From: a bacterium | Lineage (GTDB): Bacteria; Omnitrophota; Gorgyraeia; Duberdicusellales; 4484-171 | Direction: 5' to 3' | DNA length: 64,000 nucleotides | NCBI GenBank assembly: GCA_021796115.1 | Contig: JAJYOP010000005.1 | Span: 13,039 to 77,038 of the forward strand | Part shown: positions 30,851 through 36,437 of the stretch, piece by piece | How positions within the stretch are numbered: position 1 is the stretch's first letter | Layout: every line of letters starts with the position of its first letter | Made by a program: the position numbers and the translations under genes | Notes under the pieces: model-generated | Database searches by the model: none | Seen by the model: only the letters and a program-made list of their open reading frames with translations | Told to the model about the DNA's origin: nothing

Positions 30851-31939
30851 TTATGCGGGAAAGTTTTTAATAAAAAAGCTGCTGATTATTTCCTCGACCC
30901 GCCCGACCTCTTCGCTTGCCGTCCCGCCGAAAGAAAAATTATGGGCGCCGATAGCAAGGATAAGTATATCAAACCGGGATTCGCTTTGCAAGTATTGCGT
31001 TGCCAGTTTAAGCGATACATCGTGGGTAAAATACAAAGAAATTTCCTGTGCTTGCGTACTTTCGTAACATCCGAAGGCTATCTCCACTCCCAATGCTGCC
31101 GCATCAATGAAAATTACAAGATCGCTTCCGGAATTAGATATTTTACTTAAATAACTTTCTAAAGCTGTACCCGCCTCAATGACAGTTAAGCTGACACGGC
31201 CTTTTACTTTCTGTGCTATCGTTACACCAGCCCTGTCATCGGACTTCAACGAATTTCCAATTCCTACCAGAAGAGTTTTTTTGTGGCTTTTAATCTTTTC
31301 TCTAATCCCTCTTAATATTTCTTTCTCTTTTTCTTCAGGTATGAGTACGGAAATCATCTTAAGCTCTGATATTAGATTTTCAAAACTGGTAAAATGTATG
31401 GCCGATAATTTAAATTGTTTTGCTTGATGGATTAAGTCGTGGCGATCGTCAATGTAAATTATGTCTTCATATTTACAGCCACTAACCTTTTTTAATTCTT
31501 CATATATAGCTTTTTCTGGTTTTAGCGCCTTTACCTTAAATGAAAGCACTAGGTGGTCAAAAAAAGCAAAAACTTGCGGATATTTTTTCTGAAGATATTC
31601 GTAATGTAGCTCATTGATGTTTGAAATAAGGCAGGTGGGATACAAAAGGCTGATTTTTTCGACAAGTTTTATCATTTCCGTATTTGGAGAAAAAATTTCC
31701 GTCCAAACCGTAGAAAATTCTTCATACGTAACTGACGCCTTGAACCGGATTTTAAACTTATTATAAAAATCAAGGCCTGAAATAGTACCTTTCTCAAAAT
31801 CGTCGGCAAAATTATTTACGAAAAGCTCATTTATAATTTCGTCAGGCGGGACTAAAATCTTGTCTTTTATTTTATCCAGAGCAATCTCGTAATCAAAATC
31901 AAAAAGAACCCTGCCTAAGTCAAAGGCAAAACATTTCAT
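30851..31939 (-). CDS. Fusion of a HAD-superfamily hydrolase and a hydrogenase maturation endopeptidase (HycI/HyaD family)
   Basis: N-terminus FAFDLGRVLFDFD (HAD motif I) and IYIDDRHDL. C-terminus LLVGIGNSLKSDDRAGV, VIFIDAA, FTHDVSL are protease motifs. Confidence 0.7.
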   Translation of the reverse strand: MKCFAFDLGRVLFDFDYEIALDKIKDKILVPPDEIINELFVNNFADDFEKGTISGLDFYNKFKIRFKASVTYEEFSTVWTEIFSPNTEMIKLVEKISLLYPTCLISNINELHYEYLQKKYPQVFAFFDHLVLSFKVKALKPEKAIYEELKKVSGCKYEDIIYIDDRHDLIHQAKQFKLSAIHFTSFENLISELKMISVLIPEEKEKEILRGIREKIKSHKKTLLVGIGNSLKSDDRAGVTIAQKVKGRVSLTVIEAGTALESYLSKISNSGSDLVIFIDAAALGVEIAFGCYESTQAQEISLYFTHDVSLKLATQYLQSESRFDILILAIGAHNFSFGGTASEEVGRVEEIISSFFIKNFPA

Positions 31940-32744: not shown

Positions 32745-33059
32745 TTACTTATATTCGTTGCCGACACTCCCTTCGCACAACTTCTCTCCTGATTTATGCG
32801 CTGCGCGCGCCAAGGCGTGAGAAGAAGTCGGCGAACTAAATAGCAAAAATATGAGTGCAAGTAAACATTTTATTCCCGCAGCATTAAAACCTAAAACTAA
32901 AAATGTGCCAAATAAAATATTACAAGTGCCAAAAGTAACGCATTTTGTCGAAGCCTGTAATCGATTATACACATCAGGGAATCTGAAAAGGCCGAGGCAC
33001 CCAATCAAGTCAAATGCAAGGCCTAGAGTAATAAAAATTACCCCGATTATATTATTCAT
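32745..33059 (-). CDS. Mrp/Mnh antiporter subunit G-like (MbhC-like)
   Basis: GLFRFPDVYNRLQASTK motif; three TM helices. Confidence 0.75.
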   Translation of the reverse strand: MNNIIGVIFITLGLAFDLIGCLGLFRFPDVYNRLQASTKCVTFGTCNILFGTFLVLGFNAAGIKCLLALIFLLFSSPTSSHALARAAHKSGEKLCEGSVGNEYK

Positions 33060-33420
33060 CGAAATCCTTTCCTTCTAAAAACTTTGCAAAGGCAAGAGTT
33101 GAGATAAAACTTTGTAATGCCCAGGCAATGCCTATATCCATATACCAACTCCTTTTTGTGCTTATGCTTAACAGCGCACATATGCCCACAATTAAAATTC
33201 CAAGCATATCCATACCGACAATTCTGTCGGCAGCATTCGGTCCGCGTAGTACACGAAAGAGACAAAAAAATGCACTTAAAAGAATTATACTCATTCCCCT
33301 TTTTAGGATATTTAAAAACGGCAGATCAGGATACATTAAAATATTAAGTGGGTGGAACAATAGCGCAGAAAGAATTACTGCCAGCAATAAAGCACTGATA
33401 AAATAACGCACTGTTTTCAC
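33052..33420 (-). CDS. Mrp/Mnh subunit F-like (MbhB-like)
   Basis: FRVLRGPNAADRIVGMD motif. GTG at 33420, coupled to the upstream sORF stop, is preferred over the ATG at 33444 that lies inside the repeat. Confidence 0.65.
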   Translation of the reverse strand: MKTVRYFISALLLAVILSALLFHPLNILMYPDLPFLNILKRGMSIILLSAFFCLFRVLRGPNAADRIVGMDMLGILIVGICALLSISTKRSWYMDIGIAWALQSFISTLAFAKFLEGKDFDE

Positions 33421-33527
33421 CAAGCCCTTCCTTTTTTTAAACATTTTCCGAGTGCATCTTTGTTTTGTTCCAACCTTTCCATATCTTTATAGATAAACAT
33501 CGTTTGTTTTGGAAGGGCTGGGTTCAT
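33417..33527 (-). repeat. Intercistronic cassette copy 1: 36-codon sORF plus SD-sequestering helices
   Basis: The ATG lies 1 nt after the mrpE-like stop, and its TGA overlaps the GTG of the next gene. Peptide MNPALPKQTMFIYKDMERLEQNKDALGKCLKKGRAW. 95 of 111 nt are identical to 35506-35616. Confidence 0.6.
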
Positions 33528-33528
33528 C

Positions 33529-34017
33529 TTATTCAAATATTTTCTTTATAAGATTCTCAAATTTATTGACCGCGGCCGTTATGATTTCTTTTTTATCGCC
33601 AACTTCAATGCAATGGAGATATAGACAACTCTCTTCTTTATCTAAATCAACGGTTATGGCGCCCCGAGTTAAGGTAATTATATTTGCAAGATAAGTCAAG
33701 CCTATATCTGTTTTTAGCGAGGTTTTTACCTTAATAATTCCTGGTTTGAGGGAAAGATTGGGGCTGATAATATAGCGCGCGATATCCAGGTTTGCTTTAA
33801 AGCATTCCCAGATAAAGACGGGCATAAGGTATAAAAACCATAAATAGCGCTGCACTTTGAAAAATTGGGCCGGACGATTGGTAAAAAGGTCGCCCAAGAG
33901 TAACGTCACGAAAGCGGCAACGATAATTCCGATGAATATATGTTGTGCGTCTACTGGAAAGCGCAACAAACACCAAATAATAAAGCCAACGATAAATAAT
34001 ATTAACTTACTTCTCAT
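33529..34017 (-). CDS. Mrp/Mnh subunit E-like (MbhA-like)
   Basis: 162 aa, N-terminal TM helices, position within the Mrp gene order. Confidence 0.65.
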   Translation of the reverse strand: MRSKLILFIVGFIIWCLLRFPVDAQHIFIGIIVAAFVTLLLGDLFTNRPAQFFKVQRYLWFLYLMPVFIWECFKANLDIARYIISPNLSLKPGIIKVKTSLKTDIGLTYLANIITLTRGAITVDLDKEESCLYLHCIEVGDKKEIITAAVNKFENLIKKIFE

Positions 34018-35509
34018 TTGTCACCTTTAAAATCATATCTTTATAATCTTTTCCCTGCGCTAATACGTTTTTGGCCGGTTCGGTAAAATAATTGCCGAAT
34101 TTCGGTAAAATAATTACACCGCTAAAGATGCAAACGATTGATAAAATTACCATTGAGGTTTGCATTAGGAAGGGGACTTCCCGCGTACTTTCCAATTCTT
34201 TAGGTGCCGGGCCAAAAAATGCGGATTTTTGGAATTTCATAAAATAGGAAATAGTTAAAACACTACCTATAATTGCCCAGATGCCATAGCCGATGTAACC
34301 GCTTTTTATGCAAGCAAAAATAATCAGCAATTTGCTGAAAAAACCATTAAACGGCGGTATTCCAGAGATACCCATAGAAGCGATTAAAGATGTATTCGCG
34401 GTTATCGGCATTTTTTCGCGTAGCCCTCCAAGCTTTTCTAAATCCCGCGTGCCGGTGGCATATTCCACTGCTCCGGAGTTTAAGAAAAGCAGAGATTTGA
34501 ATATGGAGTGATTAAATAAATGAAACAGCGCTCCAAGTATAGCCATAGGAGTACCGATACCTAAGCCTAAAATTATATAACCAACCTGGCTTATGGATGA
34601 ATAAGCCAGCATTCGTTTTAAATCTGACTGACCGAGGGCGAGTAAGCCGCCTACAATTATTGAAACTGCGCCTAAAAACATTAATAAGCTTAAAAAAGAC
34701 GTAGTGACGCCTAAAACGTTATAAAAAATCCGGCAGAGGCTGTATATTCCCAGGGATTTAATCAGAATTCCGGAAAGCATGGCCGAAATCGGTGCCGGTG
34801 CTGCCGGATGAGCATCGGCAAGCCAGGCATGAAACGGAACAATTGCTGATTTTATGCCAAAGCCCAAGATGAATAAAATACTTGAGAAAATAACTGTCTT
34901 GTTGATTCCTTGGTTTGAAATAACCTCTGAAAGATGAGCCATATTTAGCGTAGAGGCGTTTGAATAAAGAAAAACAATTCCCAGAAGAATAAAAAGAGAA
35001 CCCATTGCGCTCATGGCCATATATTTGAAAGACGCTTCCATCTCTTCCGCTCTGCTTCCGAAGGCAACAAGTGCGTAACTTGCGATTGAAGCAAGCTCAA
35101 AAAAGACAAAAAGGTTAAAAATGTCTCCGCTGATAACTACGCCGTTCATTCCGCCAACCATAAGGAGAAACAAAGTGTAAAACTTACTTTTTGCCGTAAA
35201 TTTTTCCATGTAGTTTACCGAGTATAAGTTAATCATAAAAGAGATAAAATTTACGATTAAAAGCATAAAAGCCGTTAAGCTGTCGACAACCAGAGGTATG
35301 CCAATAGGCGGAGCCCATCCTCCAACTTTATAAATAAGAGGAAGTATTTGTGTATTGGTATTGTAGAGCGTAATCAGAGAAATAATAAAAAGAAGCAAAG
35401 TTATTGCGTTAGAAAAAATATCGCAAAAAGCCCCTTTTCTCTTTCCGGAAAGCGAAAGCAAAAAAGCAGCTCCAAGCGGTAAGATTATGAATAAAGGAAT
35501 TAATTTCAC
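34007..35509 (-). CDS. MrpD/NuoM/NuoN-like antiporter subunit (second antiporter-like subunit)
   Basis: 500 aa, about 14 TM helices, proton-conducting-transporter motifs (WLADAHPAAPAPISAMLSG, MLAYSSISQVGYI). Confidence 0.85.
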   Translation of the reverse strand: MKLIPLFIILPLGAAFLLSLSGKRKGAFCDIFSNAITLLLFIISLITLYNTNTQILPLIYKVGGWAPPIGIPLVVDSLTAFMLLIVNFISFMINLYSVNYMEKFTAKSKFYTLFLLMVGGMNGVVISGDIFNLFVFFELASIASYALVAFGSRAEEMEASFKYMAMSAMGSLFILLGIVFLYSNASTLNMAHLSEVISNQGINKTVIFSSILFILGFGIKSAIVPFHAWLADAHPAAPAPISAMLSGILIKSLGIYSLCRIFYNVLGVTTSFLSLLMFLGAVSIIVGGLLALGQSDLKRMLAYSSISQVGYIILGLGIGTPMAILGALFHLFNHSIFKSLLFLNSGAVEYATGTRDLEKLGGLREKMPITANTSLIASMGISGIPPFNGFFSKLLIIFACIKSGYIGYGIWAIIGSVLTISYFMKFQKSAFFGPAPKELESTREVPFLMQTSMVILSIVCIFSGVIILPKFGNYFTEPAKNVLAQGKDYKDMILKVTNEK

Positions 35510-35616
35510 CCAGCCCTTCCTTTTCTAAAACATTTTTTTAGTAAATCTTTATCTTGTCCCAACCTTCCCATATCTTTATCGGTAAACATAGTTTGTTTTG
35601 GAAGGGATGGGTTCAT
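35506..35616 (-). repeat. Intercistronic cassette copy 2: 36-codon sORF plus SD-sequestering helices
   Basis: The ATG lies 1 nt after the mrpC-like stop, and its TGA overlaps the GTG of mrpD. Peptide MNPSLPKQTMFTDKDMGRLGQDKDLLKKCFRKGRAG. Confidence 0.6.
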
Positions 35617-35617
35617 A

Positions 35618-35995
35618 TCAGCCTTTTAACCTATTTATTTTTGTTATATCGAATGTGCCGTATTTTTCATAAATTCTTATGGCGATTCCGACAAGCAACG
35701 CCGTAGTAGCCAAGCCGATTACTATAGAAGTTAATGCCAAGGCCTGCGGCAGCGGGTCAACCATGTTTACTATTTCCTGCCTAGGAGAGTATATCGGGGA
35801 ACGGCCGTTCATTTTGTATGCAAAGAGTGCAAGAAATAGATTGACCGCATATTCGCAGATGATAATACCGATAATTATTTTTATGATATTTCGTTTTCGA
35901 ACAATTGCGTAAAGCCCTACGCAAAATAATATCAAGCAGAGAAAATAAGTAAGCATTTTATTCCTCGTCTTTTTCCAAATCTTTTTTCGGAGCAA
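35618..35995 (-). CDS. MrpC/NuoK-like subunit (MbhG-like)
   Basis: 125 aa, three TM helices, PLPQALALT motif. Confidence 0.8.
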   Translation of the reverse strand: MLRKKIWKKTRNKMLTYFLCLILFCVGLYAIVRKRNIIKIIIGIIICEYAVNLFLALFAYKMNGRSPIYSPRQEIVNMVDPLPQALALTSIVIGLATTALLVGIAIRIYEKYGTFDITKINRLKG

Positions 35996-36437
35996 ATTTC
36001 AATAAGACCAGCACCAGAAATATTCCAAATAAACCAAGCGATACCTCCAAGAGCGCAAGCGCGACATTTGAAATTGGTATGGTTCCGGCAGAGAGAAGTT
36101 TAAACGGCATTCCTTTGGGAAGCCAATTGTAAAAGAAATATCCGCCGCTAAAACCTAAAAGTGCAATAACTAAAAACATAATTACGCCTAAACTTTCAAG
36201 GATGGAAATCATTCTTTCAGGGATTCTTTTTAATATTTCTTCTTTTCCGAAAGCAAGCATGAAAAGAATGTAAGAAAGCGCAATAATAAATCCGCCGGCA
36301 AATCCTCCGCCCGGAGAAACATGCCCATGCAGGACAATATAGATTCCATAGAGAAGTATTAAACCCACAAAAATACGGGTAACAGTCTTAACGATAAGGC
36401 TCATTCCTTTATTATCTGAATTGTTCTTAGCCTTCAT
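35958..36437 (-). CDS. MrpB/MnhB-domain subunit (MbhF-like)
   Basis: HVSPGGGFAGG motif typical of the MnhB domain. Confidence 0.7.
   Translation of the reverse strand: MKAKNNSDNKGMSLIVKTVTRIFVGLILLYGIYIVLHGHVSPGGGFAGGFIIALSYILFMLAFGKEEILKRIPERMISILESLGVIMFLVIALLGFSGGYFFYNWLPKGMPFKLLSAGTIPISNVALALLEVSLGLFGIFLVLVLLKFAPKKDLEKDEE

Follow-up and report, generated by a model that had tools for sequence, protein, structure and literature searches.

The group-4 NiFe-hydrogenase/Mrp operon in the analyzed window, by which we mean the whole stretch of 64,000 nucleotides, carries two short and nearly identical segments between its genes, which raises the question of what they are. The first-pass annotation regarded them either as a translational-coupling or riboregulatory module of this operon or as a pair of micro-subunits of the encoded complex. 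Realignment supports its view that the two cassettes, here termed copies A and B, are the same element: 95 of 111 nucleotides are identical, with 16 mismatches and zero gaps, and both copies are located on the minus strand (33417-33527 and 35506-35616). The pair is the longest direct repeat found in the window by a repeat search (spacing 2089). The 17-mer CCCAGCCCTTCCAAAAC, with up to three mismatches allowed, occurs at only two places in the window, both of them in the cassettes (shuffle expectation 0.19). The neighboring genes belong to the Pfam families Oxidored_q2 (MrpC-like), Proton_antipo_M (MrpD), MNHE, MrpF_PhaF, and PhaG_MnhG. The junction layout described earlier was recovered on both sides: an ATG follows the upstream stop codon after 1 nt and opens a short ORF (sORF) of 36 codons, the TGA of which overlaps the GTG of the downstream gene. 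The previously quoted peptides are the exact translations of the two sORFs. A consensus scan for promoters and terminators gave zero sites inside either window copy. The features of the two junctions are the following.

35618..35995, minus strand: upstream mrpC-like gene (Oxidored_q2); its stop codon TGA (35618-35620) ends 1 nt before the ATG of sORF B
35505..35616, minus strand: copy B, full unit ATGAA...GTGAA at the mrpC/mrpD junction; the 36-codon sORF occupies 35506-35616
35614..35616, minus strand: captured host start codon, the former mrpD ATG, now opening sORF B (compare the empty site in L046 and L050)
35600..35612, minus strand: 5′ inverted-repeat arm of copy B, ACCCATCCCTTCC, anti-SD-like, equal to sORF codons 2-6
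35558..35569, minus strand: central box of copy B, GGGAAGGTTGGG, a degenerate third copy of the arm motif
35508..35520, minus strand: 3′ inverted-repeat arm of copy B, GGAAGGGCTGGGT, carrying an SD-like GGAAGG (35515-35520) and reaching two bases into the mrpD GTG
35505..35508, minus strand: 3′ TGAA of copy B, which repeats the TGAA at 35612-35615 in direct orientation as a putative target-site duplication
34007..35509, minus strand: host gene mrpD (500 aa, Proton_antipo_M), starting at the element-derived GTG
33529..34017, minus strand: upstream gene mrpE (MNHE); its stop codon TAA (33529-33531) ends 1 nt before the ATG of sORF A
33416..33527, minus strand: copy A, full unit ATGAA...GTGAA at the mrpE/mrpF junction; the 36-codon sORF occupies 33417-33527
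33525..33527, minus strand: captured host start codon, the former mrpF ATG, now opening sORF A (compare the empty site in L051)
33511..33523, minus strand: 5′ inverted-repeat arm of copy A, ACCCAGCCCTTCC
33469..33480, minus strand: central box of copy A, GGAAAGGTTGGA
33419..33431, minus strand: 3′ inverted-repeat arm of copy A, GGAAGGGCTTGGT, carrying an SD-like GGAAGG (33426-33431) and reaching two bases into the mrpF GTG
33416..33419, minus strand: 3′ TGAA of copy A, which repeats the TGAA at 33523-33526 in direct orientation
33052..33420, minus strand: host gene mrpF (122 aa, MrpF_PhaF), starting at the element-derived GTG

In copy B, the 3′ TGAA and the last base of the arm form the new GTG (35507-35509), which overlaps the sORF stop TGA (35506-35508). 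The 3′ TGAA of copy A forms the new GTG (33418-33420) in the same manner, overlapping the stop TGA at 33417-33419. The public gene calls of mrpD and mrpF begin at these two element-derived GTG codons.

The origin of this arrangement is evident from related operons, in which the same junctions are found both with and without the element. The mrpC/mrpD site is filled in the window and in L005 and is empty in L046 and L050. L046/L047 and L050, with MnhE proteins 74-78% identical, carry the element at mrpE/mrpF, but read GGCTAATATGAAACTAATTCC at mrpC/mrpD. The empty mrpC/mrpD site of L046 and L050, TAATATGAAACTAATTCC, translates as MKLIPLF and is what the window site becomes when the element and one TGAA are taken out. 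The mrpE/mrpF site is filled in L005, L030, L046, and L050 and is empty in L048, L051, and L052. In L051 this junction reads TAAATGAAAATA, and its empty site TGAATAAATGAAAATATTGCGTTATTTT, which translates as MKILRYF, is likewise the filled site with the element and a single TGAA removed. The more distant relatives L048 and L052 have no element at either Mrp junction. Since the empty sites equal the filled ones minus the element and a TGAA, the cassettes are best explained as MITE-like insertions at an ATGAA start codon: the compared sites show the element integrated at the ATGAA of a gene start, with TGAA left on both sides. Two features had escaped the first-pass annotation. Its two boxes are the terminal inverted repeats of the element, flanked by a duplicated TGAA, which is the signature of a MITE-like insertion, and the ATG of the sORF is the original start codon of the host gene. 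TGAA is present on both sides in 26 of 27 copies of the family described below; L007 has TGAT at the 5′ side. The duplicated TGAA is regarded as a putative target-site duplication, and the same pattern would arise if an element ending in TGAA inserts 3′ of a TGAA. Copies at different loci are at most 88% identical, which gives no sign of recent transposition.

The element is not confined to the Mrp operon. Scanning with element-internal patterns, which do not require the flanks, gave seven loci in four Omnitrophota MAGs of the genome collection and 16 further family loci in metagenomes. About 22 of the 38 metagenome pattern matches fall outside the family; 14 of these represent an unrelated GC-rich hairpin and the remainder chance matches. 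An nhmmer search over the collected loci and over contigs reached via MnhE homologs raised the number of distinct copies to 27, located at 19 genes, and all named carrier genomes are Candidatus Omnitrophota MAGs. Viral contigs scanned for the element gave no match. All copies share the layout ATGAA-[13-nt inverted-repeat arm ... arm]-TGAA, the front being ATGA(A/T) and the end RTGAA in 27 of 27 copies. The ends of the element are CCNGCCCTTCC ... GGAAGGGCNGG; the 13-nt terminal inverted repeats, AYCCNGCCCTTCC ... GGAAGGGCNGGRT, are 97.6% complementary over 26 copies. The units are 97-121 nt long, their sole ORF has 12-39 codons, and no transposase gene is encoded inside. The interior shows subfamily differences and many indels. 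Units are single, with one composite case (L013). The copy number per genome looks modest, as judged from the contigs and loci recovered: at least four copies are on three contigs of MAG SO_2017_LW3_58, at least two are in chromosome CP070837.1, and two are in the window.

All copies (27/27 copies, 19/19 loci) lie on gene starts or operon junctions and have the same orientation, that of the host gene. The host genes include those for L4, Rrf2, NikR, XerD, PurN, MazG, LptF/G, Rnf, an FNR-like reductase, and the Mrp-hydrogenase subunits. The view that the element is a dedicated module of the Mrp-hydrogenase operon had to be abandoned, as the same element precedes at least 17 other unrelated genes, and Mrp operons missing one or both copies exist. 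Random scatter as a generic MITE does not describe the distribution either, every copy being on a gene start; the window contains 236 ATGAA sites, of which at most 21 are candidate gene starts. An ORF begins exactly at the final RTG in 27 of 27 copies. This downstream ORF is complete, with 122-500 aa, in 23 of them; it is cut by the contig end in L003, L024, and L041 and has only 41 aa in L007. A Pfam scan of ten representative downstream genes placed the domain starts at residues 1-26. In the window and the collected loci, neither a transposase or autonomous partner sharing these ends nor any longer element bounded by them was detected. The ends (CC..., with a duplication of 4-5 bp) may resemble those of the IS1380 family, to which no assignment is claimed. 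The literature was searched for MITEs described in Omnitrophota, and nothing relevant was found.

The two arms form a conserved helix in the predicted RNA. Of the 13 positions in the 5′ box ACCCAKCCCTTCC, 12 are complementary to the 3′ box GGAAGGGCTKGGT in copy A and likewise in copy B, and the minimum-free-energy folds of both contain this pairing. This substantiates the earlier proposal that the 5′ box pairs with the 3′ box, in a helix that covers the SD-like box together with positions 1 and 2 of the start codon that follows. RNAalifold on the family returned the terminal 13-bp helix alone (-24.6 kcal/mol), so that the arms are, in this model, the sole conserved helix of the family. In the helix columns 97.6% of the cells are paired, and two pairs covary (C-G/U-A in five copies and A-U/C-G in six); the observed covariation score was reached by 0 of 500 shuffles. 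The helix is also part of the minimum-free-energy fold in six of six copies tested, with z-scores of -2.2 to -5.1. Compensatory double changes separate the orthologous copies at rrf2 (L027 vs L032), rplD (L029 vs L002), and mrpF (L030 vs L050), whose 240-nt flanks are 77-85% identical. The mrpF pair has three differences in total, two of them at paired positions; its element is 97% identical compared with 82% for the flanks. Between the window and L005, the arms diverge by 0-6%, the interior by 31-35%, and 4-fold degenerate sites by 51-69%. In the window copies the 5′ box could alternatively pair with the central box, but family support is lacking (65% of the cells paired, no two-sided changes), and the central helix was dropped as a family feature. 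Switching of the 5′ box between the central and the 3′ box is thus not supported by covariation. The Rfam scan of positions 33000-36000 gave two chance-level matches (E 0.46 and 0.94); both score far under the gathering thresholds and lie outside the element.

The sORF peptide starts with MNPALPK, and the conserved ends are MNPALPK and KGRAG. A Nei-Gojobori count gives 13 nonsynonymous and 3 synonymous substitutions between the window copies, instead of the 14 of 16 nonsynonymous changes reported before. The conclusion drawn at that time, that the peptide is not under protein-level constraint, nevertheless stands: pN/pS is 0.6-1.1, and the sORF is truncated or frameshifted in 13 of 27 copies, in which it ends 15-73 nt upstream of the host start. 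Variation over the codon positions (19/23/31) is weakly periodic, and as tests of a coding constraint this measure and pN/pS both come out close to neutral. Stops summed over all copies number 18 in frame 1 and 71 and 68 in the other two frames. The sORF is fully open, with its stop overlapping the host start, in 14 of 27 copies, including both window copies; the eight Mrp-junction copies are all open despite indels of 3, 9, and 15 nt. Both window peptides are basic rather than hydrophobic, and neither occurs as an exact sequence in the protein collection. The best reading of these data is that translating the sORF probably matters and that the peptide itself is functionless.

We propose, with a probability of about 0.75, that the cassettes are small non-autonomous MITE-like elements, dispersed in Candidatus Omnitrophota, that act as a MIRU-like translational relay. 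As the sequences show, after insertion the ribosome-binding site (RBS) and ATG of the host open the element-encoded short ORF (MNPALPK...). The host coding sequence stays intact and is preceded by a new GTG or ATG, rebuilt from the last base of the 3′ arm and the duplicated TGAA; 5 nt upstream of this new start, the 3′ arm supplies a GGAAGG SD-like box. In the mRNA the arms are expected to pair and to hide the new SD and start. A ribosome coming from the upstream gene or from the captured ATG would then traverse the 5′ arm (codons 2-6) and melt the helix. Where the sORF is open to RTGA, the ribosome would terminate atop the host start and could reinitiate; the translational-coupling layout noted in the first-pass annotation is retained in this scheme. 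Because ribosome transit would open the helix or deliver reinitiation, translation of the host gene would stay tied to its original signals. Such an insertion would be nearly harmless, which would explain why copies are seen at start codons only. Termination-reinitiation cannot be the general mechanism, since 13 of 27 sORFs stop 15-73 nt early. Further observations count against the relay. The orientation is single, though a reversed element would also have an open sORF in about half of the copies, and in some cases, such as L030/L050, the element exceeds its coding flanks in conservation. The compensatory upkeep of the helix hints at a positive role beyond the relay, as pure occlusion of the RBS predicts that loss of pairing is neutral or beneficial.

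These last points bear on the possibility that the element is a domesticated cis-regulatory RNA, transposed and then kept as a translational switch with the helix masking the RBS, which overlaps with the relay. The switch could respond to temperature, to a trans factor, or to stalling on the MNPALPK leader and could coordinate the carrier genes. Besides the compensatory changes at orthologous loci, it would account for arms far more conserved than synonymous sites, for the copy pair that exceeds its coding flanks in conservation, for a strict orientation that the sORF logic does not demand, and for several metal or redox hosts (NikR, Rrf2, Rnf, the FNR-like reductase, and the Mrp-hydrogenase subunits). 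However, a conserved internal structure or a core resembling a ligand pocket is lacking, with RNAalifold giving the terminal helix alone; the interior varies by subfamily with many indels; and the central-box helix does not covary. The hosts are heterogeneous (L4, PurN, XerD, MazG, LptF/G), the element is missing from the corresponding junction in close relatives, and Rfam has no match. We therefore consider this reading unlikely, with the element being, on the best reading, neither a micro-subunit nor a dedicated riboswitch. Somewhat less probable still is an orientation-specific mobile start-codon cassette, which would either home to starts by a targeting mode undescribed for bacterial transposons or be a co-opted portable RBS-masking switch. 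It is suggested by the compensated anti-SD/SD helix, the invariant orientation, and the copies better conserved than their flanks. If true, the RBS-masking switch would put about 20 unrelated genes per lineage under common translational control.

The remaining two explanations concern the operon itself and are highly improbable. That the sORFs encode additional small subunits of the Mrp-hydrogenase complex, or factors for its assembly, might be deduced from the frame 1 kept in eight of eight Mrp-junction copies despite indels and from the conserved peptide ends; these ends, however, are the inverted-repeat arms read as codons. The absence of constraint on the peptide, the broken sORFs in 13 of 27 copies, the occurrence of the same sORF before unrelated genes (L4, PurN, XerD), orthologous operons without one or both sORFs, and basic, non-hydrophobic peptides absent as exact sequences from the protein collection effectively refute this proposal. 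Local duplication or gene conversion within the operon, without mobility, is refuted as the origin of the family: it accounts neither for the clean empty sites nor for the other 17 loci, which are spread over several genomes and share the arms and the ATGAA/TGAA flanks. The two window copies differ at 14 of 78 interior sites, compared with 20 of 63 and 28 of 78 to their L005 orthologs, and from these counts a degree of gene conversion or local copying between the two is plausible.

In the preferred reading, that of an inserted element with a translational relay, a selfish element has colonized a very compact genome (the window is about 93% coding) by landing at the one position of a gene where the start codon, the Shine-Dalgarno box, and the upstream coupling can all be rebuilt. 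The finding also has consequences for annotation. Gene callers set the MrpD and MrpF starts on element-derived GTG codons and leave the sORFs unannotated. In comparisons of Omnitrophota operons the repeat should be masked; otherwise it will be mistaken for a conserved small gene or a riboswitch.

Several known systems share parts of this architecture. Classical MITEs such as Correia/NEMIS, ERIC, RUP, and Nezha (PMC10969869, PMC3184786) are likewise small, with terminal inverted repeats and a short direct repeat; they have no transposase gene, occur in several copies per genome, are co-transcribed, and fold into long hairpins. However, they are located in intergenic regions or UTRs in either orientation, whereas the Omnitrophota family is found only at start codons in one orientation and captures the host ATG as the start of the element ORF. 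The Rickettsia palindromic elements (RPE; Ogata et al. 2000, as summarized in PMC10969869) are also described as selfish palindromes that survive in compact genomes because they are translated and do not disrupt; according to that summary they lie in frame inside the host protein, while here a separate sORF is translated and the host protein is unchanged. The Neisseria REP2 and Borrelia upstream repeats (PMC3184786) lie directly upstream of genes and supply a ribosome-binding site and start codon. Unlike the Omnitrophota element, they include a promoter, and it is their own ATG that is fused to the gene; they are described there without a relay sORF, SD/anti-SD-pairing terminal repeats, or evidence of start-codon target duplication. 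In leader-ORF coupling and in the synthetic “bicistronic design” (PMC12548453), a short upstream ORF containing the SD has its stop atop the start (RTGA), and ribosome transit clears inhibitory structure and delivers ribosomes. Those leaders are fixed single-gene leaders or engineered parts, whereas the Omnitrophota leader is a portable repeated cassette and can be viewed as a natural counterpart of the bicistronic design leader.

The closest parallel is provided by the mycobacterial MIRUs, dispersed repeats of 40-100 bp (Supply et al. 1997, as summarized in PMC12548453 and PMC3184786). MIRUs insert at start codons, and their internal ORF is coupled to the host gene at -4 spacing (PMC12548453); tetranucleotide direct repeats and empty and filled sites are reported (PMC3184786). 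As far as these sources describe them, both families consist of short repeats that occupy start codons or operon junctions in the orientation of the genes beside them, with tetranucleotide direct repeats and with empty and filled sites. The -4 overlap of ORF stop and host start described for MIRUs is seen in 14 of 27 Omnitrophota copies, the sORF of the other 13 ending 15-73 nt upstream of the host start, and in both cases translational coupling is proposed to lower the cost of insertion. MIRUs belong to Actinomycetota and the present element to Omnitrophota, and their base composition likely differs. MIRUs are described as often forming tandem arrays with imperfect terminal repeats, while the Omnitrophota units are single apart from the composite one, and their conserved 13-bp helix doubles as an anti-SD/SD pair with compensatory evolution. 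The element appears to work like a MIRU and is not claimed to be one, homology being unlikely given the phylum and the composition. It would thus represent a second, independent case of the strategy proposed for the mycobacterial MIRUs, in an uncultured phylum and with a cleaner architecture, which suggests that this strategy is general.

Alignment and coordinates bore out the description in the first-pass annotation of two paralogous 111-nt cassettes, each with an ATG 1 nt past the upstream stop codon and a terminal TGA that overlaps the downstream GTG. The features are as follows.

33417-33527, minus strand: copy A, mrpE/mrpF junction
33529-33531, minus strand: mrpE stop codon TAA; the ATG of short ORF (sORF) A follows one base later
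35506-35616, minus strand: copy B, mrpC/mrpD junction
35618-35620, minus strand: mrpC-like stop codon TGA; the ATG of sORF B follows one base later

A gap-free alignment of the two copies shows 16 mismatches over 111 positions. Each sORF comprises 36 codons, its translation agrees with the peptide quoted previously, and its TGA overlaps the GTG of mrpF (A) or mrpD (B). In the public gene calls MrpF and MrpD start at these element-derived GTGs, whereas neither sORF is annotated. Within copy A, an in-frame ATG at 33442-33444 precedes the mrpF GTG by eight codons (region 33421-33444) and yields a 130-aa MrpF in a mechanical ORF list; the equivalent ATG of copy B is followed by a stop codon. Gene calls for the mrpF orthologues of contigs L046, L047 and L050 begin at the GTG and give 122 aa, the length also read from the same GTG in L005 and L030. 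A repeat search of the window returned the cassette pair (spacing 2089 nt) as the longest direct repeat. Further two-copy direct repeats lie at 62796-62909/63000-63113 (114 nt, 72% identity, 204 nt apart) and 46244-46334/48185-48275 (91 nt, 71% identity, 1941 nt apart). The operon encodes a group-4 NiFe hydrogenase (NuoD-, NuoC-, NuoB- and NuoH-like) fused to Mrp antiporter modules, names confirmed by Pfam, as well as to a ferredoxin and a HycI-like protease (Pfam). The gene after the ferredoxin (30851-31939, 362 aa) shows weak HAD-hydrolase matches in its N-terminal half and weak HycI matches in its C-terminal half; in the more distant operons L048 and L052, HycI is instead encoded as a separate protein of 160-171 aa.

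The 5′ box ACCCAGCCCTTCC and the 3′ box GGAAGGGCTKGGT of the cassette are mutual reverse complements and thus constitute terminal inverted repeats (arms), with TGAA directly outside both. Orthologous operons were found through MnhE homologues.

Occupancy of the two junctions in orthologous Mrp operons (MnhE identity to the window in brackets)
Window: mrpE/mrpF filled; mrpC/mrpD filled
L005: mrpE/mrpF filled; mrpC/mrpD filled
L046/L047 (74%): mrpE/mrpF filled; mrpC/mrpD empty
L050 (78%): mrpE/mrpF filled; mrpC/mrpD empty
L048 (52%): mrpE/mrpF empty; mrpC/mrpD empty
L051 (56%): mrpE/mrpF empty; contig without mrpC/mrpD coverage
L052 (49%): mrpE/mrpF empty; mrpC/mrpD empty

The empty mrpC/mrpD junction of L046/L047 and L050 reads ...AAAAGGCTAATATGAAACTAATTCC... 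(GGT replaces GGC in L050), opens with MKLIPLF and equals the window sequence minus the element and one TGAA. The empty mrpE/mrpF site of L051 is TAAATGAAAATATTGCGTTATTTT, opening with MKILRYF. Since the empty sites correspond to filled sites less the element and one TGAA, the insertion took place at an ATGAA start codon. The sORF opens with the original ATG of the host gene, whose present GTG is formed by the last base of the 3′ arm and the repeated TGAA. [quoted passage not shown]

The element proved not to be a module peculiar to the Mrp-hydrogenase operon, as it stands before 19 mutually unrelated host genes. Search patterns were placed within the element, with the flanks excluded. The pattern scan gave seven loci in the species-representative genome collection, all from Candidatus Omnitrophota MAGs, and 38 in the metagenome collection, 16 of them clearly belonging to the element family. 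An nhmmer profile run over the recovered loci and the contigs reached through MnhE homologues resulted in a total of 27 distinct copies. All 27 show the layout ATGA(A/T) - arm - interior - arm - (G/A)TGAA, and in each an ORF begins exactly at the final RTG. This ORF is complete in 23 copies (122-500 aa), is cut by the contig end in three (L003, L024, L041) and measures only 41 aa in L007. The host genes encode, among others, MrpD, MrpF, ribosomal protein L4, an Rrf2 regulator, a NikR-like regulator, XerD, PurN, an Rnf/Nqr subunit, MazG, ExbD, an LptF/G-like permease, a YmdB-like protein, RodZ and an FNR-like reductase. Pfam domains begin at residues 1-26 in the ten representative downstream genes scanned, which places the RTG at or near the true N-terminus. 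Operon-internal copies have the upstream stop codon 1-2 nt before the ATG; other copies lie behind a long non-coding leader. All 19 loci stand at gene starts in sense orientation; as at most 21 of the 236 ATGAA sites in the window are candidate gene starts, this is not due to chance.

Several loci deserve separate mention. The copy before the NikR-like gene (L013:5313-5472) is composite: a mini-version of 51 nt that carries both arms (ATGAATCCAGCCATTCCTTCC...TTGGAAGGGCTGGGT) lies 9 nt ahead of a full copy minus its first 10 nt, which suggests that insertions were nested or in tandem, or that derivatives arose by internal deletion. The copy before the FNR-like gene (L021:1213-1330) has acquired a local inverted repeat, seen as an opposite-strand self-match in nhmmer, in which GTTTTGGAAGGG adjoins the 5′ arm and so offers it a nearby alternative partner. 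The short ORF downstream of the L007 copy (region L007:4058-4296), whose product has a basic tail and a single predicted hydrophobic helix, is followed by convergent genes, and the 5′ flank of this copy is ATGAT and not ATGAA; either the ORF encodes a real small membrane protein, or this copy alone does not sit on a true gene start. A GC-rich element of marine (TARA) and other metagenomes (L008:687-769, shared core CCCTTCCAAAAC...GTTTTGGAAGGG; similar loci L011, L012, L014, L016, L019, L020, L025, L026, L028, L031, L033, L037 and L043) is unrelated. Its stem of about 26 bp is perfect (MFE -89.9 kcal/mol, z -6.9), and the outer part of this stem varies in sequence among loci with complementarity kept. 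The GC-rich element had no Rfam match at gathering score and could be an undescribed structured RNA or a palindromic repeat.

RNAalifold returned a single consensus structure for the 26-copy alignment, a 13-bp arm-arm helix (-24.6 kcal/mol) with 97.6% of its cells paired. Two pairs covary (C-G/U-A in five copies, A-U/C-G in six); the covariation score was reached by no shuffle, and slid registers drop to 39-59% pairing. The helix lies within the minimum-free-energy fold of all six copies folded (z-scores -2.2 to -5.1), and is predicted to cover two bases at the beginning of the host start codon together with the GGAAGG box that lies 5 nt before it. Between the window and L005, divergence amounts to 0-6% in the arms, 31-35% plus indels in the interior and 51-69% at 4-fold degenerate sites of mrpD/E/F. 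Compensatory arm changes occur in orthologous pairs whose 240-nt flanks are 77-85% identical: AAC...GTG versus AAT...ATG before rrf2, and CCCAGCCC/GGGCTGGG versus CCCCGCCC/GGGCGGGG before rplD. The mrpF copies L030:1023-1131 and L050:4491-4599 are 106/109 identical, and a compensatory arm pair accounts for two of their three mismatches. These changes suggest that pairing has been under selection since the insertion, most simply at the RNA level; a possible alternative is that the arms were corrected as DNA, one templating the other.

The sORF is no ordinary protein-coding gene, and the suggestion of a micro-subunit was wrong. Peptide conservation is limited to arm-encoded residues, pN/pS is 0.6-1.1, variation is weakly higher at third codon positions, and an early stop or frameshift in 13 of 27 copies ends the sORF 15-73 nt before the host start. 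The frame is nevertheless not neutral: frame 1 holds 18 stops in total versus 71 and 68 in the other two, the sORF is open to the overlapping RTGA in 14 of 27 copies, and the Mrp-junction copies are open in 8 of 8 cases despite indels of 3, 9 and 15 nt. The ATG and at least 12 codons are kept in every copy, so that a ribosome would always traverse the 5′ arm.

Translation from the upstream cistron, or from a captured ribosome-binding site and ATG, would run through the 5′ arm and open the helix, freeing the SD supplied by the element together with the rebuilt start. In copies whose sORF extends to RTGA, direct coupling by termination-reinitiation may come on top. At the window junctions, a two-step relay through the 36-codon spacer ORF would take the place of the ancestral stop-1 nt-ATG arrangement that coupled mrpC with mrpD and mrpE with mrpF. 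Of the RNA or coupling interpretation favored previously, the coupling layout, the arm helix and the unconstrained peptide stand; its Mrp-specific scope does not, nor does the pairing of the central box with the 5′ box (65% of cells in the correct register, zero compensatory changes).

A minority reading, for which the following points leave room, regards the cassette as a co-opted regulatory device. All copies have the same orientation although the arms are symmetric and the reversed element would often be translatable, as it would also begin with MNPALP and is open to GRAG-stop and RTGA in about half of the copies. Copies A and B (window:33416-33527, window:35505-35616) differ from each other at 14 of 78 interior positions, and from their L005 orthologues (L005:859-970, L005:2948-3044) at 20 of 63 and, for copy B, 28 of 78. 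That paralogues are closer than orthologues indicates either concerted evolution or, in two lineages, independent insertions at one site. Identity between the L030 and L050 copies is 97%, with 240-nt coding flanks only 81-83% identical on each side. Each of three processes could contribute to these anomalies: gene conversion, repeated insertion at one ATGAA, and constraint on the interior. The upkeep of a helix that masks the ribosome-binding site also suggests that it is of some use, for instance in tying expression to the original signals, in stabilizing the transcript or in regulation.

A literature search found no description of the element in Omnitrophota. The same relay logic has been proposed for mycobacterial interspersed repetitive units (MIRUs), (Supply et al. 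1997, as summarised in PMC12548453), which have tetranucleotide direct repeats, imperfect terminal repeats and empty and filled sites (PMC3184786), and it is common to engineered bicistronic leaders and the Omnitrophota element. By analogy, we propose that the element works like a MIRU, to which sequence homology is unlikely. It represents a strategy that is known but rare, the start-codon-inserting repeat with a relay ORF, and is a new and structurally distinct case of it.
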